DNA of 64,000 bases from Negaprion brevirostris (lineage: Eukaryota), in contig JARDVH010000097.1 of the NCBI GenBank assembly GCA_030324005.1, positions 53,626,075-53,690,074 on the forward strand, in the 5' to 3' direction. The stretch's first letter is position 1. Each line of letters opens with the position of its first letter. Positions 11,701 to 29,700 of this stretch are shown here, one piece after another. The position numbers and the translations under genes are program-made. The notes under the pieces were generated by a model. It was not told the origin of the DNA and searched no databases. It saw only the letters and a program-made list of their open reading frames with translations.

Positions 11701-14700
11701 CTTACTGCTTCAATTCATCAATTTGAAAGCCAGTAAGATCTGGAATGCTTTCCTCATTTTCTTCCTCCTCATCATCTTCAATTATATTTTGGGCTTGAGG
11801 ATCACCTTCTGGAAACATTTCAGACTCTAAATTGGTTAAAACAAAACAATGAAGTTGTACTTTCAATTTAGGTTTTCTGAAGAAAATGACAGACTGAATG
11901 AATCATTTAAAAAAAATTTGTGAAAAAAAACTTACGTGTTGGTACAGACTCTACTGGATTTGGTTTCAGAATTCCAGTAGAAAGCAGCTTGGAGAACAGC
12001 TCATTAACATCCAGCTGCCCCAAATGATTATCCAAAGGTGCAAAAGATGATCCTGTAACATTATAATATTTGATTACACAACAGATAAAAATAAGTCATA
12101 ACTTTAACTGAATTAGCTCAAAAAGCCAACTTGGCAGCAAACAAAATTTAGAAAGACCTAAGCAGGTGGATGTTATAATACCATATGAATTTATTAGCAC
12201 AAGAAAGTTATTTGCTATTTCAAATCCAAGGCTTCACGCTATAAAGCTAAATGTTAGGCAGTTCTTGAATAATACACTAGTTTAATGCAAAACATTTACA
12301 GAATCACTTTTTCAAAGTGAACATCTTGCTCACCATTATTGACAAAATTACATAAATAGTGCTACCAGAAGACCTATCATAAGTTACAATTTGCACATTT
12401 TTTAAAGCCCATGGACTCTATGGCTATAAAGTATTAAAACATTATTTCCATCTACACTTCCATCCCAAATCAGCTCTGCCTGTTTCTTCCTTGAATGGAG
12501 GTACAACCAGTCACCATCCACCAACACTACTCTGCCTGGTTGAACTTACTCATGGATTGAAGATCTATCAATTCAGGGGTTAGAACCAAGCCACTGCAGA
12601 GCTGCAAACTTAGTGATGCAACTAGGGATGCACAAAAGGCCACACTTAAAAGAATGCCGAGATCTCAGAGAATTGCAAAGGGAGAGGTGAAAAAAATTGG
12701 GAACAGTAATGCCAGACAAGAATTTGACAACAAGGATGAGCATTTTCAAGCTGCACTGCCACATCAGGAGTCTGTATGACTCTTCTTCAGAGTTAAAAGG
12801 AGGGAGAAATTATAAATTTTGTTTTAAGAGGGGGCAGAGCAAAGTAGAACACCGGGAATAGGTGCAGCTTGGAGAGATTTGGCAAATATGCCAAGGTACA
12901 AAACAAAGGGAGTGTTAATGGTAATGTTAAGGACTGACCATGGAATCAGATAGCAGAACAAGGGTCAGCACTCAAAAGCAAAACTTAAGTGACAGATGGT
13001 CTGTGATAGATAGAGGGTAGGGAGCACTGGGACAAAATAACTGGAATTGCAATAGTTGAGTTTGGATGAGGGTTTCAGCAGATTAGTGGGGACAGGGAGG
13101 AGATAGTTGCAAACTAACAACAGTGGCCAGAAAAAGTGAGTCAGCGGCAAGGAAATGGGACTTTGTCCTGGAGACCAAAGATAATGCTCTTCCCTACCAA
13201 TATTTAATTGAAGGAAACTTCTGACATATCAGAGAAGCATGACAACAATGACAGCAGCAGAGTCAAAGTGAGGATTTGGAGGAATGTAAGAATAGACCTT
13301 TGGAAGACTTTGTAGGTAATGGCACAGGAGAGGGAAGAGATGCCATTGCAGGTGATTTTTTTATTTACGTACAACTAAATACGTATGAATAAAACTAGTC
13401 AAGAGCTACTGGACAACAGAACAAAGGTATTGAAGCAAGATGGTGCAGTCAACCTTTAAAGGCTGCAGACAATACAGCAGGATGAGAGGGGTAGTTTACA
13501 TGTGATTCACAGTTTTGTGAAAGCAAGTTTCAGTACAATGACAGGAAGAAACGTGAATGGAGGGGTTCAAATTGGAGTCATGAGAAAGGTATATAAATTT
13601 TAGATGATGCGAGAGGAAAAGGAGTTTTGGGTATAGTTTTGCAATTAAGACCTGGCTACAACTTATGGTACATGAAAGAAAGAATAGCACAGTGGCACAA
13701 TGATTAGCATTGCCACCTTACAGCTCTAGGAACCTGGTTCAATTCTAGCCTCGGATGACTGCTTGGGTGGAGTCTGCACAATTCTCCCCGTGTCTGCATG
13801 GGTTTCCTCTAGGTGCTCCAAATTCCTCGCACAGTCTGAAGATGTGCAGGTTGGTGGACTGGCCATGTTAAATTCCTCCTTAATTGCCCCACCATGTGTA
13901 GGCTACATGGATTAGCCATGGAAAATGTGTTGAGTTACGCGGATAGGACAGAGGAGACAGCCTAGGTAAAATACTCTGTCAGAGAGTCAGTGCAAACCTG
14001 ATGGATCAAATGGCCTCTCATACACTCAGGATTCTAATCTAAAAAGTAAATGATAAGAAATTCATCTGTCCAATTTATTGCAGAATATACATACCTTGCT
14101 GGATTTGTGTAACTGGAACAGAAGATTGAGGGGGTATGTACTGTTGGCCTTGACTAAAAGGAGTCTGATTTTGAGAAAAACCAGTCATGGCATTAACCTA
14201 GGAAATAAAAAAGAAATTCATGAAAATCATCATGATCATGAAAATATCCAAAGATTACATTTCAAATTTATGCTGTTTCACGTATCAAAGAGGCTGATGA
14301 GAATCTTCCCCACACTTCAATATTCTAATTTTTTTCTCCTGAAGGCACTAGATACAATTTTACAGGCCACTAGCAGTTCTTCAATGCCTCATTAAAAAAA
14401 ATATATACACATTAGTCTCAATATTAAATTTCAGCATTGTTTTGACTATGCAGAGTCTGTGCAGAGCGCTTTCTTACACAGATCATAGGAGGAATCAGAT
14501 GTACAAAACAGTGCATGGTCAAGTGCCACTAAAACAGTCATCTCAATGGCATCTAAACGCTTACCCAATGACAAACCAATTCCCATGATTGCTGTTGGGA
14601 TCTTCAGATCCTCATAACACAAAAGTATATCTCTACCCATCCATTATAGATAATTTTTTGACTGAAGATTTTACCTCATAAAAAAGAATTAAAATATTGA

Positions 14701-17700
14701 TACTTACTGACTGCAGTTGACGTATGCCTTCAGGTAACGATGTGGGCAGGTTATTGTTGTAAAACGTTCCACATGCTGGATCATATTGATCATTATTGTG
14801 AGGTCCTGCCAACCGAGGCAGTGGTGTCTGACCATCAAAACAAGGACCTGCAGGCCCAAAGACTGGGTTGGCCAGTGTTGTTGCTCCATGTACAGCAGAT
14901 TCATTGTAATGAGATCCTTGAGGCATGTTAAATCTGGGTCCAGATTGTCCATCAAATACTCTTCCCTGATACTGTGAACTTGGAGGATGGCCATTAAACA
15001 AATGACCAGCAACACTGCATCTAGGATCAGGATGCATCGAAGCCCCTTCAAATTGTGGTCCACGAGAACCATCAAAATATGCACCAGGCTGTGCAGGAAT
15101 AATGTCAAACCGAGTTCCAGTAGGACCATCAAAACGAATGGCAGACTGGCCTGGATGGGTGCCTGAGCCATCAAAGTGTGTGCCAGGTTGCCCCATTTGT
15201 GGGCCATCAAATCGCGCAGCACATTGTGCTGGGCGGCCACCAGGGCCATCAAAATGTGCATTGGGCTGTCCTGGATGTGGACCATCAAATCGTGTGACAG
15301 GCTGCCCTAGTCGAGAACTTGGGCTGTCAAAACGCATACTGGGGGGACCAGGCTGAGGACCCTCAAAACGCATGCATGGTTGCCCTAGACCATCTGGACC
15401 ATCAAAGCGTGTGCCAGACGGACGAGGGTGTGGGCCATCAAAGTGCATGGCAGTTTGCCCAGAGTGTGGATCAAAGCGAGGATGCCCTAGATGATTTCCA
15501 GGATTGTCTAACTGTGTGCCTGGCTGGCCTGCGTGCGGGCCAAAGCGCGTGCCAGGGTGGCCGCCTGGATTGTCAAAGTGACTACATGACTGCCCAGGAT
15601 GCGAACCATCAATCCGAGTGCCAGGCTGTGGGCCATCAAAGTGTACTCCAGGCTGCCCAGGGTGACCACCTGGACTATCAAAGCACGTTCCAGGCTGTCC
15701 TGGGTGAGGGCCATTAAAGCGTGTCCCAGGCAGTCCTGGGTGCGGGCCATCAAAGCGCAGTCCAGGTTGCCCTGGGCGAGGACCATCAAAACGCGGTCCA
15801 GGAGGCACCATACGAGGTCCATCAAAACGTGGCCCAGGCTGTCTTGGGCGAGAACTGTCAAACCGCAGTGCAGGCTGCCCAGGCCGAGGGCCACATGGAC
15901 CATCAAAGCGTACACTAGGCTGCCCTAGGTGTAAAGTCCCTGGGCAATCAAAGCACGCACCAGGCTGTCCTCGGTGTGGGCCATCAAAGCATGCAACAGG
16001 TTGTCCAGCATGGGAACCACTCAGACTATCAAAGTGTCCAGTAAGTTGCCTGGGAATACCCTCGATCCAATGACGAGGCTGCTCAGGGGCACTATCCATT
16101 GGCTGAATAACTTGTTCAGGGGGTTCCTGCAACCTCATCCTAGATCCAGCAATGCATCCATCACAGCTTGGAGAGCCATTTCGGCTACGAAGCCATACCC
16201 GGTCTGATTCAATGGAATCATCAGTTCTCAATTTTTCCAGATTTCTTGCAGACCCAGATTTTCCTTGCCCTGTTCTGTCCGTAACTTCTCGAAATCTCTG
16301 AGGCATTTCAAGTCCCCCAGATCTTAACCTTGAACTTTCAACTAGTCCACTGCTTCTCTGTGGTGCATCATAAGCAGGTCTTTCCTCTGTATGACGGTCA
16401 CAATGAGATCTTGGCTCTTCTCTTTTTATGTCTGAAAAAGAAAGTACATTCATTATTGTTTTGGAGAGATTTAAACACTAGCTCTTAGGGCAGAGCAGGC
16501 TTCAGAGACTGATGCAAAATATTCATTATAAAACACCATTTGCTGATCTACTTATAATCAATGATTTTATTGAAACCAGAAAATAATTAATTCTATGCAT
16601 TTTAATGACAATTTATTTTAATACCACCTTTGTCTCCTGCCACAGCAGCCTCTGTACCACTAGAAATTAATGGACTTGCTTCCCATTCAATATTGAGGAA
16701 ATTGAAGATATTTCTTTTAAAGTTATGAGTTACATATTACATTTCAAAAACCATTCCAGAAATACATCGCAATATGATTCTACTGCAAATCACAAACTCA
16801 ACTTGAGGGATCAATGCACATATCAGGGATTCTGGTGATAATTATCCAATATTTGTAGCTTTAGTGATAGTTGATGTGGTATTCAATAAACTCCTCCCAA
16901 TACTTTTATTTAATAAAGACAGATGAGCAGTAGTCGACACAATAGCTGGCTTCAATGCCCATTTGCTTTGAGATTGGCAGACAGGGTAGGTGAGAACAGG
17001 GACAAGATCTTCCCAGTATTTTCACATACAATTACTGTCCAGTAACCCATGCTGGAAAATGCTTATGCACAGACATTGAGTATGTTAAGACAGGAAATGG
17101 AGAGTAGGATTAAATGGGTCTTTTTAAAAACCAGCAAAGCAGGGACAGGTGCAGTCCCACAGGGATCAGCGCTCAGACCTCAGCTATTCGCAATATACGT
17201 CAATGATTTTAATGAGGCAACCAAAAGTAACATTTCCAAGTTTACTGACTACACAGAAGTCGGTAGGAATAGNNNNNNNNNNNNNNNNNNNNNNNNNNNN
17301 NNNNNNNNNNNNNNNNNNNNNNNNNNNNNNNNNNNNNNNNNNNNNNNNNNNNNNNNNNNNNNNNNNNNNNNNAGGAATAGGAGTGTTGACGAAGATGTTA
17401 AGAGGCTTCAACGTGATTTAGAGAAGCTGAACGAGTTGGCAAATACATGGCAGCTGCAGTATAATGTGGATAAGCATGAAGTTATCCACTTACAACATAA
17501 AAGCAGAACATTACTTAACTGGTGCTAGATTGGGAAATGCTACTGTACTAAAGGATCTGGGTGTCCTTGGGTCCAGCCACTGAAAGCAAGCATGTAAGTA
17601 CAGTAAGCAGTTAGGAAGGCAAATGATACGTTGGCCTTCATCACAGTAAGAGTACAGGTGCAAGGATACTTCCTGAAGGTATACATATTCTTGGTGAGGG

Positions 17701-20700
17701 TACTGTGTGCAGTGATGGTTTCTTTAGCCAAGGAAGGATATACTTGCCATAAAGGGAGTGCAGCGAAAGTTCACCAGACTGATTCCTGGGATGGCAGGAT
17801 TGTCATACACAGGAAGGTTATGCTGACTGCGTCTGTAGTCACTGGAGTTTAAAGTGAGGGATATTGAATTTAAACATAAAATTCTGACAGGGCTGGACAG
17901 ATTGGATGTAGGAATATTGTTTCCTCTGACTGGTGGAGGTTGGAAGTCCCAGGATGCGCAGTAAAGCCTGAGAAGAGGAGGTTACCTCTTTACTCAGGGT
18001 GATGAACCTGTGGAATTCTCTACCACAGAAAGCTGTGGAGACAGCTTTTTGAATAACATTTAAAAAGGAAATAGATAAGATTTCTAGATTCTAAAACGTG
18101 TCAAGGGGTACGGGAGAGCACAGAATTTTGTTGAAATGCAGGATCAGCCATGATCATATTGAATACTGGAGAAGGCGCGAAGAGACAAATGGCTTATTCC
18201 TTCTATTTTCAAGATGATGCTTCATCTGTGAAATAGCCTGCAAATATTCACTAGCCTAATATATAGAGAATGGTCTTAAATTACTGCAGAGCTATAAGTA
18301 TTCAACGAAGCAAATGTCAATGCCACAAGCAAAAACTAAAAATCCTTGTGTGATTTTTCTCCTGTAAAACCCAATGCAAGTGGCAAACTATAAATAACTT
18401 CCAGAAAGATGGGCAAATCTGAAGGATTGCAGCTATGAAAACAGTACCAGGAAACCAGGATGGATGTATCTTGCCTTTTGAGTGTAAAGCATTTGCAATG
18501 ATTCAATGGGAAAATTGCTTATAGTTCAAGATTACGCTACATTACAAGGCCCAAGTCAATTCTGTGCGTAACTGATCCCAGCAAGGGTTGCTGTAGTACA
18601 TTAGCAGCCTTGAAATGGATGGAGAATCACCATGTCAATCCAGTTCTCGTTCTCACTCTCACTCGCTAGCCAAATAACATTTTAATCCTCAAGCGCAGGT
18701 GTCAGATATGAAAAGAAAGAATACTTGGTTGAGTTGCCTCCACGAGCCAATGACTGCTGACAACCATTGCCTANNNNNNNNNNTTATGTTGTGTGAAAAA
18801 TATAGCAGTTGCCACTTAAGTTATTGCCATTTGAACAAACCACCATCTGCAACTTGAGTTACAGCTTCAGTAAGTTAGAAAATAGGTAGAAGTTTTTTTT
18901 GAAATCCTGGTTGACCTGACCTTGAATAATTAAGAGATGCAAGCACAGATACTTCCGTATGTCAATAGGAAACTGCCTAGTCTTGTCCATTGCCAAAAGG
19001 AATATTCATAAACTTCAGAAGAAATGCTTGGTTTTGACATTGTGACCCAGGAAAGAGAATAAATTTAACAGGCAAATTGGAAGAGCTTTCAATTACTTTT
19101 CTAAATTTACCTTGTCCATCTCTTGGACCAAATTCTTGAAGATCTCTTTCAACCATGGGCTGATGTTTTGACCCCTGCCGCTGATCTTTGTGTTCATTTC
19201 TTGACTCTGTCCAATTATTACACAATTTCCCGTGATTAGAATCTGTTTTGTACCGATCTTCAGGAATGGGAGAACTTCTCACTTGTTTAATCGGCAACTT
19301 TTCATCTCCATGCTTTTTGCTATCACGTATGTTACTTTGGTTTCTCTCCTCATCTATCAACGGACTCATATGTTGACGAAGTGGTGATACATGGTCACGT
19401 TTGTCATGCAATTGTCTATTATCACCAACAGGAGATCGTCTTGAAGGTTTTATGTCACCCAATTTTCTTCTGTCTGAGTGTCTTCCTTCACTGTAATGTC
19501 CACGTCCACTCTCACTTGCCTCTCTTTTTTCTCCAAGTTTTCTTTCCTGACCAGAACCTCTTGTATCATGTCTTTCAATTAGTGAATATGAAGTGCTGCT
19601 CATTGTTGGAGACTTGCTGCCTTGGTCACCATCTTCTCTTACACTAAGCAGGAGATCATCCGATATATCTTTATTATGAGCCTCTCTTGTTTTCCAACGA
19701 GATTCTGTTTCATGTGATTTTTCTAACTGAACCCTGGTTCTTTTTAATTTAGACATGTGCTCAAGATAGCTTAGTTCTGCTTCAGATAATAGTGCAGCTT
19801 TACCTTGGGTTCTAGCTAATGGAGATTCTCCTTTCAGTTCAGTTTTAAAACCTCTGGGGGTAACATGGGATGCTTGCCAGTCACCAGATCTACTCTTTTC
19901 CTCTTGATACTGGAACAGCTGATTGATTTGATGAGCAACAACAAGGAACTCATCATAACTTATTTCTGCAGCTGCTAGTCGTTGATTCGCCTACAAAAAC
20001 AAAAAGGTTATAAACTTGAATACGTAAAATGCAAGGGCTAATTAAAATCAACAGCTTTTAGCATGCCTAACAATAGTTTCAATAAACATAACAGCAACTG
20101 AATTTGGTCGAAAGAGCACTTGTATGGATATCAATTACAAAATTGCACTGTGATGTCTCCATCACAATTTCCAATTGCTCAGAAAAGCTATACTCATTAA
20201 AATCAGTCCTCTAGTTTGGAGGTGTGCACTGAGGTGTACCACAGTGCTACCACTGCCTATAAATTTATAGCAGAAGTCATCACTAAAAGAAACGAAGGGA
20301 AAGGGGAAACTGAGAATGGTCAAGAGCTTGTCAGCAAATCATGGAATATTCTCAAATATAAATATTCAAGTAACCAGTCAGGAATCTATTCAGTAATTTA
20401 CAAGAGTTGTCAGCAATAAACAACTATTTTCTGTCCATGTTAATTGAATGAATTATCACGCAATACATAAATGGCTTTCTTCATTTGATTAAAAGGTTAA
20501 CTTTGATGCATAAACAAAAGGTTTCTTTGGCCTGTCAACTACTCTTCCCATGTGATACCAAAGCAAATGTCTGCATTAACTAACTCTTTGAATTTACAGA
20601 CATGTCTTCAAGTTCTGACAAGCCATTATTAATTTCAAGCACGAGAAGGAAATTAACTTGGGATTCTATTCCTTTCGCAGAATAATGAACATAATCTTAG

Positions 20701-23700
20701 GTGACATTTCCCAACTCTGCCATAATGTATTATAGTCCACTGTCCTAAATCTTTAATTAGATTTTCATATTTCTTATACACAAATATAAACATCTGGTTT
20801 CTTGTATCCAAGTGATAAAAATCATGGTTTTGTAATATCTTATTTTCTTTCACTATGTGAGTTCGTTCCCAAGTTGGGAGTCTTTACGGATGTTAACAAT
20901 CTACCAACTTAGTTCCATAACCGTTAAATGTTATTTCCTAAAGTCTACCAATCTCAGTTCTGAAGCTTTCAACTGACCTAGCCACAACACCTTTCTGGGC
21001 AACTGAATTTCAAATTTCTACTAAACCTCTGTGTGAGCAGATCCCTTCTTGATGTTGCCTTCAATAGCCTAGCTCTTATTTTAAGATTATGACCTTTGTT
21101 CTGAATGGTCCCACCAGAAGAATGTACCTATTGTAGCTCATCATTTACAAAATACTTGATCCATCTTTCTTGGGTCCAAAATGGATGACCTCATACTTTC
21201 AACTCTATCTGCTAATTTGCCACTCATTTTGTCACAAGTTCTGACAACTTGTTATCCTATACCATGTCATCCAATAAGCAAACATGAATCTATGGCTCTG
21301 CGTTCCATTATTGAGTCTTTTAACAATTTTTGAAAGGCAAATCAGAAATCCTCCTGATGAAAGGCAGTGTTTCATCTATTCTTTGAACCAGGTCCCTTTA
21401 AGTAAATGATACACAGAATTTCCAACTCCTCAGCTCCCACCATTTTATTGACAAACCCTAGACTTTCCACTGGATATCATTCAAGGCTACCCATAAAGCA
21501 GTTTTCAAACATTCAACAAGTCAACAAGAACAGATAGTTTTCCCATGAAAGCTGCCTGTCACTACCAATGACTGCAAAAACACTTGCATTATGTTGGCTC
21601 AGATCAGGTGTGGTGTCGACATGCTGCGCTTGGTTGGAGTCATTGGGTTGCATTTCAGCTTCATTTGAAGCAATTTTTTAAAGCGGCATCTGGGCCTTTT
21701 GGCTAAGATGCAAATTAGATCAAGCCTNNNNNNNNNNNNNNNNNNNNNNNNNNNNNNNNNNNNNNNNNNNNNNNNNNNNNNNNNNNNNNNNNNNNNNNNN
21801 NNNNNNNNNNNNNNNNNNNNNNNNNNNTGTCCCAACTTGTTGGGACTCTGAATTGGCTTTAATTTGACTTGATTGGATTGGAATAAAGTTTGAAAAAAAA
21901 AACACTTGCATTATGTCACTGGGCCCAACAATACCTCTGGTTGAGGAGTGGGATTGCTTTGGGACCAAAAATGTGTATTCGAAGGCAGAGGACAAAGTTG
22001 AGATTCTTGATGAATACTTTGCAACTCTCTTACCAAGGGGGAAGATACTGCCAGGTCAGTAAAAATGGAAGTAGTTGAGATTCTTGATGGGCTAAAAAAA
22101 TTGATGAAGGACACAATAGAAAGGCCAGTTGTACATTTTTAAATTCATTTTACAAGACCTGAGTGTTGCTGGCTAGGCCAGCATTTACTACCCATCCCTA
22201 ATTGTCCTTGAGAAGATGTTGATGAGCTGTCTTCTTGAACAGCTGCAGTCACCTGTGATATAGATAATCATAGTGCATACCAGGATTTTAACTTAAACAG
22301 TGAAGGAACGGTGATATATTTCCAAGTTAGATTGGTGAGTGGCTTGGAAGAGAACTTCCAGGTGGGGGTGTTCCATGTGTCTGTTGCCCTTATCCTTCCA
22401 GATGGTAGTGGTTGTCAGTTTGGAGGTGCTGTTTAAGGAACCTCAACTGGGCACGTCTGGATGAATTAAGGAAGGCCAGCGTGGATTGTTTAAAATAGAT
22501 AAATGGTATCCAACTAACTCTCAATTTTTTGATGAGCCCTTTCCCTAGAGAACATTACGTTGCCTACTCCTTGGATTATGCTCAAAGACACAAATACCCA
22601 GTCCTGTTCTGACAAATTCCTCTAAAGTAGTCGAAATGCACTCTTCAGGGTGCTGCTGCATTTCTGATTATTTTTGAATTGTGCTTGCTCCCAGTAATGC
22701 GATGGGATGGTTAAACTACTATTTGCACGTCTCCCATTGGTGAACTCGTCTAAAGGCGTTAATAAAATCATTTTTTGTGTGTCCTTCAAAACTCTTTGAT
22801 TAGACACCATTGGCATTTCAAGTGAATGGTCACAAACCCAAAATATTTCATAAGCATTTCAATCACTGTTACTTCTATGGCAAAAACTTTCACTAAAGAA
22901 AATGTTCCAAGTCTGAGCAGGAAAGCAGCCTTTGCTGCAGAATATTACTAAAACAAGAATTAAAATCAGGGTGTATTGCTTGAGAAGGTGCAAGCAGGTT
23001 CAACTGTGAATTTCAAAAGAATTGGACAAACACCTGAAGGGAAAAAATAGTTGAGCCTTTGCAAAAGGGCCGATGAGTGAGACTAGCAGAAATGCTTCTG
23101 CAGAACCAGCACAGATATGATGGGCTGAATGGTTTCCTTCTGTGCTATAACTATTAAATGTATATGACAATAGTTATGTGGATATGTAGATCTTTGAAGT
23201 CTTTTAGCTTTGTTAGAGGGTAAGTGGTTTTCAACTTCTGATTCAACCCAGAAATGCACACAGATGTAACACAAGTAAAACTTTGAATTTCCTTGATCTA
23301 ATAGAACTTCCTACAGGGTCCGTGCAAGGAGTAGTTTTTACATGTCACTCTTCAAACATTCCTAATAAATGCTTCCACAGAAGGCTTCAAACCCTTAGCC
23401 TGGGAGACAGTGCATTCCCCCATATCTTACATATGCATGATCTGCTAAATATGTTAACTTTTCCTGAAAGCCAAGCTTATAACTATCATCTCCAGTTAAA
23501 AAAGCAATTAGGAGGGGTTCCTGCTTCACTATTTCTTTTCCTGGAATGGTTGTTCTCGGAAAGAAACTTACTTTTTGTCGAATTAACTTGCTTGAGTGTG
23601 GCATCAGGCAGGGTATCTGCTGGACAGTGTTGAATGGTCATGCTACAAATTGCTGTACAAGCTCTGCTAATATCCATCTAGACTCCAAACAAGTCTATAT

Positions 23701-26700
23701 AAGTGTAAAAATATGTTTTCTGAAAGGTTGTCAAGGAACATTGTGCCAATGTGATTTCCCAGCTTCTCCCACTGTATCAGCGCTCCCCCCACCCCTTCTA
23801 ACTGATGAACAATCCTGTGAGGCAGTTGAACGCAAGAAAGTAGTTTTAACAAGTTAAATGATTAAGAAAAATTGAGGTAAAGCAATTTAATTTATAATGA
23901 AACACAATTAATAAATTTCCACTTACTTTTTTCAGTAAATCTCTTTTGCTGGCAGATGTCAATTCTTTTGGGATTTGTAAGTTTGCATCAACACTCATCC
24001 TTTGCTGTCTTGGTGTTCGAGGAGACAGAATACCTTTACTTCCAGGATACACATCCTTCTGCTGATGAGGAAATTTTGTATTTGTCGGAGTCTCTTGTTT
24101 CTGCTTTAAGCTACAAAGCAAACATTTATAATAAAGTATTATATATCAGTTTTTTTTAAACTTTACCATCTTGTAACTTACTGGTTGCAATGATTCCTTG
24201 TGGACTCAAAGTAAATCCCCATCAAAATTAAACTGTTTTTTCCTTGAATGTGTTCAACCGAATGGATATCTGAAATAATTTTCCTTCCTTTAGAAACCGA
24301 TTCATCAGCTATGTACTTACAGCTTCTTCAATTACTTCAGTGGCTCGTTAGCAACTGACAGTATGATTACTTTACAATATGCGGTAGCAGCCATAAAAAT
24401 ATCAGAAGCCTCAACTCCTCAAATGGAAAAAAGTTCACAACCTTGCAACACATATCTCAGTTGTATCGTTGAAAAGATATGAAGAAAGAAGATACTGTGC
24501 CTCAAAGATTATTGCTACAATTAGTAGTTTCATTTCTACATGAATGGCAGTAGGAACATTAGTTACAATAAAAGCAAAATACGACAGATGCTAGAAATCT
24601 AAAATATATATATAAAAACAAAAAACAGTGCTGGTAATTTCTAGAATTTTCTGTATAAGCTAAATTATGTTTGCCGATTATCCAAAATGTGTGGGGGTTG
24701 TGGGGATGTAGGAAACAGAGCTCACGCAGATTAAGTGCAGTATGACTGTGATGACGACAGTTATCATTTAATTTGGACAATTATGAGGTGCCAAAACCAG
24801 AGCAATCAAGTTTATATTCCACACAAAAATGTTAACATATATCAAAATCACAGCATGTAACAAAGGGGCTACTGATACATTACTCACTAAAATACACAGG
24901 GCAAACATTTTTGGATGTAAAATTGATGGAATTAAATTAGAACTTTTAGGAAGATAGTACTGTATACAATATTTTGATTTGCAGATAAATGTGGCTGTGA
25001 AGTAGTAACTATTCCCAGAGATTGGNNNNNNNNNNTAACTTGGAAATCAAAAAATTGCAGGGTTATAGTAATAGTGGAATGGGATAATTGGGAAAATCAT
25101 TTAAAGGACATCACAGCTATGACGAGCATAATATTCTCTATGTTCTTCCGTAAGATTCAGATAGGGAGAGTCTGAAATGCACAGTGTTAGTCTGGAAAAA
25201 TGGGCCCAGTGAAGACCCCACAATACTTAATAAATTGTCTCACCTAATTATTTCTGACCAATGAAACATACACAAGTATGAACAGAAGCAAATCAAGCGC
25301 TAAAGTGGAAATGTGGACAGTTTTCGATTTAATTATTCTGTGCAATGATGGTTAACAGTGTGGAATAGGTTAACCGTCTGATAGAAGATATCTTCTACAA
25401 GTTCAAAAAAGAACTTGCTATTTTATGGCAAAATGTGATTGATGGTTGCAAGGAAAATAAGTAGCAATCACATGGTCTGCAATGAACTTTCTGATATGGT
25501 ACATTCCCTTAACTTACCTTTTAGCTTCCTCCCAACCAGATTTCCATCTTTTTGCAGATGGCTGGTCATGCCAGTTTTCTGCATTTTCCTTTGGCTCAGG
25601 AGAACGCCTTGGGGAATTCCTGTTTTCAGGACGTGCAACCTGGGATTCCTGACATCTATCATCCCGCGGTCTCTTCAATTTCCGTGGATCTCTTGCTTCT
25701 GGTTTGGCATTACCTTTTTTCCTAGCATCTCGACGTTCCCAGTTATTAGCATTCTGTTTATACTCATCAGACAGGGGTCTCTTTACTGATTTTTCTTTGT
25801 CCTGTGTTTTGGCAAGTGGTGAAAGACTTGTACGCCTCCTTTTTGGTGAGGATCGCCCTCTTTGTCTGGTAGAACGTGATACAGGTGACCGTGATATTGG
25901 CGAGCGTGATCTTGGGGACCGTGATCTTGACGATCTAGAATGTGATCGAAAATTAAATCCTCCAGATTTAGAAACATCCTTTCCAATCTCTTTTCCATCC
26001 TTTTCATTTTTCAATAGAACCCCATTGATCGCTTTATTTCTTGTCACTGAAGGTTTACGTTCACTCCCTTTACTTTGATCATCCTCTACTTTTTTTTCAG
26101 TATTTATCTTCTTCTCTTTTATTTCTACTTTATCAGTCTTATCTTGAGAAGACTTGCGCAATCTTGGATCTCTTTTACTGACTTCTACTTTTACCTTCTC
26201 AGTATCTACTTTCTTAGCATTTTTGATAGGTAACTTATTTTTCACTGGCGATACCATTTTAGATTTTCCTTCAGAAGCTCTAGATTCCTTTCTCAATTTC
26301 TCACAGATCTTATCCTTGTCTTGTTTTGATGTACCAATTTGACTTTCCGTCCGATCAGAAGATCCTCCAGCTGGACTACTCCTTTTGCTTGCTGATGTTT
26401 TCTCTAATTTCTCTGTTTGCAATGGGCCTTCTTTTTTAGCAGAATCTTTTGAATGACATGACTGTTGACTGAGCCTATTTATCCGAGGGTCTCGGTTTGA
26501 CACTTTAGTATCACTGACATGTGTTGCCTGAAAGTTTTCTAACTCCGCTGATTCTTGCTGCAAGGGTCTAACCGTTGCAGGAGTTGGCTTTGCTGGTCCC
26601 ATTGAAAGCATAGGAGAAACCTTTGTGATTGGCACATGTAGTTTGGAATGTCCAAGAGTTACCGCCGAATCAGGAATAGGATGTTGGGAAGCAAGTGAGG

Positions 26701-29700
26701 CAATCTGAAAGGGGGGAAAAAAAACACAATAATAGAAGTAAAATGCTAGGAATATCTGTACGCTGTATACAAACACAGATCAGAACTATTTAACACAAAC
26801 CTGGAACACAAGCATTTGTATTAAATTTGTATGGAGACGTTTCCTCATGTGCACACCAATATATATTTTTATTAAATCTAAAGCAACTTCTTCAATAAAG
26901 AAGTTTTTACACTGGTCACAAGTTAACACCAGAACACAAAGTGGGAAAGACATTAACATTTGAAAAACAAAGAAAACTTTGGATGTAATCATCCTTCAGT
27001 TAGCACTGATGTCTCACTGCAATGACCCAAGCGGGGAATCAAACCCAGGTCCCTGACGTGGAGTCTGCACGGGTTTTCTCCGGCTGCTTTAGTTTCCACG
27101 CACAGTCCAAAAGATGTGCTGGTTAGGTGCATTGGTCATGCTAAATTCTTCCTCAGTGTACCTGAACAGGCACCAGAGCGTGGCAACTAGGGACTTTCCC
27201 AGTAACTTAATTGCTTTACTGTAAGCCTACTTGTGACATTAATAAACTTTAAACAGAACTCCAAAACTAAAATGTTATTTCTTTTTCTTAGAGATGTTGA
27301 ATGATCTGTATGTTTTTGGCAGCTTATTTTAGCATTTGCAGTTTTAAAAAAATGTTGGTTACTGTAATTAACTTCTTTGTTCTTTTGAATAGATTCAGTC
27401 CTCATACAATATGAATCAGTGACAATCTCAAGCAAGACATCAACACAGGCCCAGATCTTTGCACTCAAGGTTTCCTCTCCCCATTATCCTTGCTCTAATC
27501 ACACCAGGACTAACATGTAGTTGTTGGCCAACAGCAGTATTCTTTGCCTTGTCTTTCCCCATCCTACCACTTGCTGCTGAATTTATAACATAAACAACAT
27601 AAGAGCAGATTATGGAGTATAAATATAATGCAAACTTGCTCAATGATCAATCTGGTCAGGAACCACTTAGCAAGTCTTTCACAAGGCATGTTTAAGTTTC
27701 TACAAGCAGACTTCTATTGAATCATTTACATTTAGAATGCACTTAGAGTGTAAGAGAGAATTAAGCTTTGAAAATTCTTTCAGGTAGCTCTTTTGCAGAT
27801 GCCATCTGAGAAATCCTATTTATACTAAAAGGAGTTATAGCACAAGAGACAAGCCCTTTCCCTAGAGAACATTACATTGCCTACTTCATGGATTATGCTC
27901 AATGAAGACAAATACCCAGTCCTGTTCTGACAAATTCCTTTGTAGTAGAAATGGCACTCTTCAAGGTTGCATTTCTGATTATTTCTGAATTGTGCCTGCT
28001 CCCAATGGGGGTGGTTAAACTACTATTTGCATGTCTCCCATTAGTGAACTCTTGTCTAAAGGCATTAATAAAATCGTTTTTGTGTCCTTCAAAACTCTTT
28101 CATTAGACATCATTGGCATTTCAACTGAATGGTCACAAACCCAAAATATTACATAAGCATTTCAATCATTGCTACTTCTATGGCAAAAGCTTTCACTAAA
28201 GAAAATGTTCAAGTCTGAGCAGGAAAGAAGCCTTTGCTGCAGATTATTACCAAAACAAGAATCAGGTTGAATTGTATAAGCACTTCCAACTGAATCAAGA
28301 ACAAAAATACCTACCATCAAGTCAAATTAGCCTAGTTGTAATGGACTAGCAACCCAACCTCAATGAGATTGAGCATTCCTAATTCCAGTGGCAAGCTGCA
28401 AAACTGAATTCAATATGCATCAGCGAAAGTTATGCAAGCAGGGTTGTCATTTAAGAATTTCAACTGGCTTATTAATGGCCATCATGAAAGGACATATATC
28501 ACCACTATTGAACAATGTGATTAACCCACTCATAATACCCTCTGAAGTGCCAGTTTAAGTTGTATAAGCAAACTGCTATCATGAAAATTAAGGGAGAGTA
28601 TGACTGCAGCCGTGTCAACTTGCCAAAAGTGGCCATAACCTTCGTAACCATTCCAGAACAGTTACAAGCATCTGCCTGACAAATGTGTTGAATTGCCCAG
28701 GTATGTCCTGCCCAGAAAACACCAGTCAGATCCAATTCAATTAATTAGTGGCCCAATAGTTTGCTCTCCAGCAAAAATGTGTTAATAGTGCCATCAAATG
28801 GCATGCACTTGATGGGAATATAGCATCAAGGATCTTTAGTAAAACTGAAGTGGGAAATTGGTGGGGGTCAGGGCAGAAATTCTCCACTGGGAGTCGTACC
28901 TAGCACAAAGATGGTTGTAAGAGGGCAATCATCTCAGTCTCAGACATCAATCCAGGAGCTCAAGAAAAGTTTGAGGCTCAACTAGCTTCTTGTCATCAAT
29001 GTCAGAAATAGGGATGATAGCGAACAATTGGGTATTCAGTACCACTTGTAACTGGCCAGAGACCAAAGCAGTCTGTGGCCACATGCAGCAACATCTCAAT
29101 ATTCAGGCTTAGGCTGATGTGTGGCAGGAATGTTATCCCGTCACTTAAATGTCAAGCAATGATCATTTACAATAAAAGAATCTAACCATCTTCCCACGAG
29201 ACTAAATTACGTTTTGATCAAAATCCTGGGTTCTTACTAGTGACAAGAAACAGAATGGTCCAACTAACCATGTAAGAATTGTGTTCAGAGATTGGGAATT
29301 CTGTGGAAAGTAACTCATCTCTGACTTCCCAAAGCTTGCCTGTCCACTGTCTACATGGCATAAGTTAGGAGTGTAATGGAAAACTATCCACTTGCCTGGA
29401 TGAGCACAGCTCCAACACTTAAGCTCAACAACACACAGCACCCTATCAACCTTAAATATTCACCTCCTCCAAAGCCAGCAGTGGCAACGATGTATACCAT
29501 GTATAAAATGCACTGCAACAATTTGCCAAGGTCCTTGTGACTACACCTTCCAAATCCTCAACTTCTATCACCTAAAATGACAAGGGGAGTGAGTAGACAC
29601 ACCAGAACACCAGCAGCAGCAAGTTCTCCAAGTCATACGCATCATCCTGTTGGAACTGTAGTTATATTTTCTGTTGTAAGGCCAAAATTTCAAAAACCCA

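Follow-up and report, generated by a model that had tools for sequence, protein, structure and literature searches.

What is a sequence of about 300 bp that lies between exact 19-bp direct repeats, ends in AATAAA and an A-run, and contains fragments of the 5' end of U2 snRNA, and how could such a sequence have been copied? The sequence lies in a window of 64,000 nucleotides from Negaprion brevirostris (contig JARDVH010000097.1, positions 53,626,075 to 53,690,074), which is the whole stretch of DNA that was analysed here, and the initial annotation took it for a retroposon built from U2 fragments. It is inserted antisense within an intron of PCF11, between the frames 25514-26704, a PCF11 exon (97% identical to a Mustelus protein and 90% to a Scyliorhinus protein), and 18977-19990, which we read as the next large PCF11 exon. 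The minus-strand stretches 14633-16477, 18977-19990 and 25514-26779 appear to be the large exons of the gene, including a long exon of RFDGP-type repeats, the 25514 frame being the one confirmed by homology. Another very abundant repeat, with several diverged copies in the window, occupies 22160-22440, just downstream of the element. The features of the locus are as follows.

21576..21594, + strand: 5' target site duplication (TSD), 19 bp; present once at the empty site of X1, X2 and X8
21595..21617, + strand: truncated U2 head, U2 nt 18-40, with the A23C allele at 21600
21607, 21612, 21615, 21628, 21637, 21645 and 21650 (21607..21650), + strand: clustered A>G differences from the family majority, candidate ADAR edits
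21621..21649, + strand: fold-back arm (family nt 44-72), antisense to the U2 head and predicted to pair with it
21658..21671, + strand: predicted small hairpin (family nt 81-94) with a T6 run after it
21686..21709, + strand: further piece of U2 (nt 4-27, 22/24), predicted to form a stem-loop
21717..21727, + strand: beginning of a duplicated pair of hairpin modules (first module), each opening with U2 nt 23-30
21728..21827, no strand: assembly gap; 97 nt in gap-free copies, comprising the rest of module 3 and module 4
21828..21892, + strand: young-subfamily 3' end, with a palindromic hairpin, a (RATTG)n-like stretch and AATAAA at 21882-21887
21893..21897, + strand: poly(A) tail, 5 A beyond the TSD
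21898..21916, + strand: 3' TSD, 19 bp
25514..26704, - strand: exon of the host gene PCF11, 97% to a Mustelus protein

The annotation made from the letters of the window held for most of its structural claims. The 19-bp repeat is present without mismatch at 21576-21594 and 21898-21916 (the last T of the 5' copy could alternatively be U2 nt 17), and the AATAAA is followed by ten A, five of which are part of the TSD. Aligned with the genome's own U2 gene (L061), the two blocks that had been compared with the vertebrate U2 5' sequence matched it to the same extent, 21595-21617 at 19 of 23 positions (U2 nt 18-40) and 21686-21709 at 22 of 24 (U2 nt 4-27), and both alignments outscored 2,000 of 2,000 shuffles; the recurrence of AGATCAAG was located at 21717-21724. 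The two sides of the gap proved contiguous, 97 nt being missing at the window's 100 Ns as judged from 10 of 12 gap-free copies, and 96 and 89 nt as judged from the other two. The two modules that the gap interrupts, 3 and 4, are related to each other (p ≤ 0.0005).

An empty orthologous site was found in contigs of three other runs (X1, X2 and X8), in which position 21575 runs directly into 21898 and the repeat occurs once; these joins skip 322 nt, and the 19 letters fit either side. The TSD is therefore real, and the filled and empty sites together indicate that the insertion is real and recent. The flanks of the empty sites differ from the window at 13 of ~570, 18 of ~550 and 42 of ~580 bases, respectively, while run X4 has the filled 5' junction with zero differences and may come from the same source as the window, hence it is not independent. 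Positions 21595-21897 are thus a recent, 5'-truncated copy of a poly(A) retroposon family of ~310 nt, and its sequence at 21828..21892, identical in at least 13 other places, belongs to a young subfamily. Rfam returned no U2 match on the window copy, which is truncated and gapped; full copies did give U2 matches.

The family is large. At least 2,391 places in the genome match a 31-mer from the 3' end and at least 1,773 match the junction of head and body, both pattern counts being lower bounds, with 0 matches to either in reversed controls. Each half of the window copy, on either side of the gap, gave more than 1,000 candidate matches, and near-identical words were present in runs of at least nine organisms. 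Since one fixed head-body junction recurs in so many places, the element is a replicating unit and not a set of separate chimeras, and we are practically certain that a U2-headed retroposon family exists. TSDs of 8-24 nt, all starting with A, were detected in 21 of the 61 copies that had both ends (0-1 in ten shuffles of flank pairs), and A-tails were seen at 93 SINE 3' ends. Starts at U2 nt 1-8 were found in 41 of the 61 copies, a proportion inflated by the choice of part of this set for an intact head.

Full copies are non-coding, begin at U2 nt 1 and retain nt 1-40, after which come the antisense arm, the small hairpin, U2 nt 4-27, two related hairpin modules, the palindromic hairpin and AATAAA with its A-run. 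The earlier description of the sequence beyond U2 nt 40 as unrelated was mistaken, in that family nt 44-70 form an arm that is antisense to the head and folds back on it, and the 3' third shows a weak alignment with U2 nt 40-107. One real copy folded with z = -6.25; covariation was weak, with double changes at 6 of 81 predicted pairs. The fold-back arm is predicted to cover the part of the U2 head that we take to be the branch-point recognition sequence. Family nt 223-292 can be aligned with U2 40-107 in colinear order (p about 0.01), and a sister family, which matches both the body and U2 at p ≤ 0.0005, forms a bridge between them; for these reasons the body is probably a decayed mosaic of U2 sequence. 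The sister family (L189:1471-1720, L221, L231, L252 and L286:6-146) is also short and U2-derived, retains more of the 3' half of U2, has a hairpin module in common with the SINE, and includes two copies that end on U2 nt 39. At another locus (L213:1400-1620), an inverted U2 piece comes after stacked U2 5' pieces, an arrangement that may show how the fold-back arm originated. We rejected a classical Pol III SINE with A and B boxes from tRNA, 5S or 7SL, as the head is U2: no tRNA head was found in 6 loci, and in 8 loci Rfam gave no match to tRNA, 5S or 7SL on the element and U4 or U1 pieces gave no match either. The element contains oligo-T runs (T4 and T6), and Rfam identified no ribozyme in the family loci examined.

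We then considered where copies insert. At insertions of the retrotransposons Keno and Utopia, U2 resumes from nt 39 (PMC4640811). A pattern of five A followed by U2 39-55 occurred in 23 places, compared with 3 in the control, and by inspection these comprised 8 clear SINE ends and 1 probable one, 6 ends of a Tx1 LINE, 2 sister-family ends, 1 A-run inside a U2 gene, 1 unclear case behind a gap, 1 plain U2 piece and 3 chance-like matches. At least 8 SINE copies therefore end exactly on U2 nt 39, where a random hit on that base is expected ~1e-4 times if 100 U2 copies are assumed; these copies were found with a pattern designed to find them. Targeting of U2 by the SINE is real but rare, at ~0.4% of the family. 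Most copies are dispersed, and 93 ordinary SINE 3' flanks had no U2-like preference. At L217/L261, a LINE 3' UTR, an A-run, U2 39-55 and a complete SINE follow one another, so that both elements are stacked at one U2 site.

The LINE that ends at the same site belongs to a single Tx1-type family, which accounts for 29 of the 30 best zf-RVT loci and whose homologues are unnamed shark proteins. Beyond the 6 pattern places, one further copy (L110) ends on U2 nt 39, and full-length 5' ends bear U2 heads at 10 loci among 64 places with U2 31-47. One copy (L258) has a U2 1-57 head, a 458-aa ORF1 with a ZCCHC3-type RNA-binding domain and CCHC, the first part of ORF2 and, beyond a gap, the 3' end typical of the family, the whole lying within a 21-nt TSD; the 5' and 3' ends of this LINE are linked only across assembly gaps. 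At the start of ORF2, a 76-aa fragment looks like an APE endonuclease by eye, with no Pfam match, and no full-length ORF2 was recovered among the copies, which were truncated or gapped. We call this LINE Keno-type by its target, not Keno by phylogeny. Strict U2 specificity was not seen, as of the 22 LINE 3' ends visible at zf-RVT loci none lies in U2, and the LINE is mostly dispersed, that is, its specificity is relaxed. A23C is the allele found in a tandem U2 array, in the heads of young SINE copies and in 5 of 9 LINE heads. The SINE adjoins the LINE at 3 of 29 LINE loci, against about 0.5% expected; no LINE was nearby at 30 SINE loci taken in genome order. The initial annotation had suggested L1/Tx1-type mobilisation, and the same genome does contain a Tx1-type partner that uses the Keno site; we think it very probable that this LINE is the partner of the SINE.

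One-event chimeras of LINE and SINE were looked for and rejected: L084 has no outer TSD by eye, and L100 is a sequential insertion. At L202:1500-1800, an N100 gap joins a LINE 5' UTR to a SINE 3' end, which may be a chimera or a scaffolding misjoin. A shark protein annotated as PRDM7-like (P0006) contains a stretch 79% identical to the RNA-binding part of Tx1 ORF1, as either a gene-model artefact or an exaptation.

Two other accounts of the SINE and its helper deserve consideration. The Keno-type LINE might serve only the U2-site copies, with mobilisation of the dispersed ones left to some other L1-clade element that accepts any poly(A) RNA. L1/Tx1 enzymes in general leave A-rich TSDs of 8-24 nt, L113 holds a further element, with a 1,273-aa ORF and zf-RVT, and the SINE and the LINE have no tail in common beyond AATAAAGT and A, so that another L1-clade enzyme could serve the dispersed sites. 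Against this, the Tx1 family is itself mostly dispersed and dominates the zf-RVT loci as described above, and the two elements have insertion points in common, as at L100, where the SINE sits at the 3' junction of the LINE; we consider a division of labour between two LINEs improbable. The annotation had left open whether the element was an snRNA-headed SINE or a non-autonomous Keno derivative, and of these the SINE fits. That the element is instead an internally deleted Keno/Tx1 (5' UTR plus 3' UTR) is very improbable in our view, although SINE and LINE are both U2-headed, both end in AATAAAGT and A and use the same site, and the body has a weak alignment with one LINE 5' UTR (p = 0.006, partly via the U2 piece they have in common). 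A derivation of the body from the LINE 3' UTR was rejected for lack of similarity (p = 0.34), and U2 itself explains the body through the antisense arm, the second piece, the resemblance of 223-292 to U2 40-107 and the sister-family bridge.

A SINE that is probably moved by this Tx1 LINE must still be transcribed, and several fossil copies bear on where. One (L245) consists of U2 13-50, the SINE, an A-tail, U2 39-48 and a second A-tail within an outer TSD that has one mismatch, which suggests a retrocopy of a SINE-bearing U2 gene whose transcript was polyadenylated just past the insertion. Three others (L219, L221 and L229) similarly end at U2 53-55 followed by A, and a further three (L222, L224 and L232) read on to U2 +229-235, which is also where plain retrocopies of pre-U2 stop. 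Although L224 and L232 lie on different contigs with different flanks, both have T65C, T156C, G157A and T161A, the last of which occurs in 0 of 11 other full-length U2 stretches. Sequence from upstream of U2 is also retained: at L334, a region 89% identical to that of the U2 gene L061 is fused directly to U2 1-40 and SINE 41-54, after which the copy breaks into a Tx1 fragment, and at L110, L121 and L122 the spacer of a 492-bp tandem U2 array precedes the head. Stacked U2 pieces were found on 23 SINE loci, with ends at nt 47-58, and on 10 LINE loci, with ends at nt 47-57, among the 64 places with U2 31-47; the ends lie 9-20 nt past the cut, which is the TSD range, and the pattern could detect only ends at nt 47 or later. 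No intact source with promoter, full SINE and the remainder of U2 was found in the genome. Contigs of three probable RNA runs (X15, X16 and X18) cover the element, giving no start, strand or level, and may reflect host introns. On this evidence, source copies probably sat inside U2 genes and used the U2 promoter.

The U2 loci of this genome are themselves varied. At L066-L068 (G000, C157:37354999-37356174), a U2 variant with the A23C allele is arrayed in tandem in units of 492 bp, and diverged units of such an array in L106, L109 and L110 contain LINE and SINE insertions. Three high-scoring U2 genes of a different type (L062, L063 and L064) have one extra A near nt 29 and 76% identity in the 3' part; two are on small contigs, and they are other variants or foreign DNA. 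Dispersed U2 retrocopies at L069-L072, L075 and L246 extend ~38 nt beyond the mature 3' end and are copies of pre-U2 RNA; some have TSDs.

Residence in U2 genes has a competitor, in which flanking host promoters or an internal one transcribe the family and jumps of the reverse transcriptase onto free U2 snRNA add the extra U2 pieces; the junctions on nt 39 would then mark insertions into scattered U2 pseudogenes that led no further. Such template switching is Kojima's reading for the crocodilian SINEU-2 (PMC4494074). In the shark, the diversity of the stacked junctions and their joining by microhomology favour it, as do short U2 retrocopies that end at nt 52-63 with no element attached and a 5'-truncated LINE that carries U2 1-10 (L049). 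It leaves unexplained the spacer or promoter sequence on L110, L121, L122 and L334, which mature U2 does not contain, the outer TSD and additional poly(A) tail seen at L245, the variants of U2 that L224 and L232 have in common, and the inheritance of the same U2 1-55 junction by 4 LINE copies. As a full account of the family we therefore consider it unlikely; template switching can produce part of the source-gene observations, and the two routes may both operate.

The window copy may also record what happened to its RNA. Compared with the family majority, its nt 18-73 carry A23C and seven A>G changes, and nothing private was found elsewhere in the copy. The change at 21615 (nt 38) is a subfamily allele and that at 21628 (nt 51) is probably an old CpG state; with both set aside, 5 of 13 A are changed, which at the unbiased rate of 0.027 gives p = 1.5e-5, or ~0.04 such copies expected among 2,400. 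In four other runs, G at three of the A>G sites made up <7% of summed contig depth. Among 25 copies retrieved with the window copy as query, 4 of the 7 that had at least two changes in common with it carried extra A>G at sites unchanged in the window, compared with 0 of the 18 others (p = 0.003), and the patterns were non-nested. ADAR prefers duplex RNA, and on balance we favour the view that the changes in the window copy arose by ADAR editing of a duplex before reverse transcription, an event that would affect a minority of the family's RNAs. A family-wide ADAR signature was rejected. A first test gave a strong signal in a set enriched by the window-copy query, whereas in an unbiased set of 61 head segments, picked regardless of head, A>G stood at 19/712 against T>C at 23/1216 (p = 0.26); an A>G excess is therefore not a general property of the family. 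Clustering of A>G in the unbiased set gave p = 0.04.

To bring these observations together, we suggest that sources likely reside in U2 genes at nt 38/39, are likely transcribed from the U2 promoter and are likely copied by the Keno-type Tx1 LINE, an outline that we judge probable. The LINE endonuclease would cut U2 DNA at nt 38/39 and, far more often, A-rich sites elsewhere. A SINE copy that landed in a U2 gene would be transcribed from U2 +1, and because this promoter is external, the SINE would need no internal one. Its RNA would be polyadenylated after its own AATAAA or sometimes only within the downstream U2 sequence, or would alternatively run on to the U2 3' end. The duplicated target, from U2 nt 39 to about nt 47-58, would then appear as an extra U2 piece stacked on daughter copies, while the fold-back arm would mask the U2 head and the resulting duplex would occasionally be edited by ADAR. 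More tentatively, and with rather more doubt than confidence, we propose that these steps form a closed cycle of a shark SINE and its Tx1 helper on U2 genes, with insertion at nt 38/39, use of the U2 promoter, polyadenylation in the broken U2 gene, a new U2 piece in each round, a hidden branch-point sequence, and ADAR edits that are sometimes written into the genome, as in the window copy.

If the closed cycle is true, it would be the first transcription route shown for any SINEU, the snRNA-headed SINEs of crocodilians, and the window would preserve, in DNA, the trace of an edited retroposon RNA. Intermediates retained in the genome point to a particular promoter, insertion site and helper, which makes the question of SINEU transcription testable. 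Young insertions can also serve as presence/absence markers, the one in the window being absent in relatives whose flanks are only 2-7% different. New here are the empty orthologous site, the nested copy L245, the U2 variants of L224 and L232, and the A>G cluster with its unbiased control.

R2 elements have non-autonomous SIDE derivatives. R2 is co-transcribed with 28S rRNA (PMC4494074, Discussion), and our model for the shark SINE likewise borrows the promoter of a multicopy target gene; unlike R2, that target is a Pol II snRNA gene rather than Pol I rDNA, Rfam detects no ribozyme, and off-target copies number in the thousands. Keno (Tx1 clade) and Utopia resemble the shark elements in the 3' junction on U2 nt 39, and they resemble the partner LINE in having two ORFs of Tx1 type (PMC4640811, PMC6136364); the shark SINE differs from these LINEs in being non-coding, and the relaxed specificity of its mostly dispersed partner is as in crocodilian Utopia (PMC4640811, PMC6136364). 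U2 processed pseudogenes and snRNA-LINE chimeras, too, carry U2 5' pieces with TSDs (PMC4494074, Discussion), and such retrocopies are also present in this shark genome, but the SINE differs from them in joining head to body at a single fixed point, in at least 1,773 places.

The shark element works like SINEU, with all tested SINEU features found, crocodilian SINEU-1, -2 and -3 being compared by description. Like them, it is shorter than 500 nt, with a U2-derived head, poly(A) and internal oligo-T, it has no tail shared with a LINE and repeatedly gains U2 pieces at its 5' end (here at the 23 stacked SINE loci), and its Tx1 partner itself has an snRNA head (PMC4494074). A target in common with the Tx1 family is likewise seen, both ending on U2 nt 39. 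Kojima 2015, which defined SINEU, did not find it in hosts other than crocodilians, and its Discussion leaves SINEU transcription as an open question (PMC4494074); a 2018 follow-up has it as still not demonstrated (PMC5786205). A paper on chondrichthyan SINEs makes no mention of SINEU or Tx1 (PMC5499810), and no shark SINEU was found in the literature searched; an entry for it may exist in Repbase or Dfam. The family widens SINEU to include sharks, where it probably arose independently. The shark and crocodilian elements differ in their target, which is U2 nt 38/39 in the shark and Mariner-N4 in crocodilian SINEU (PMC4494074). They differ as well in the shark head, which folds back on an antisense copy of itself, and in the fossil shark copies, which point to sources inside U2 genes.
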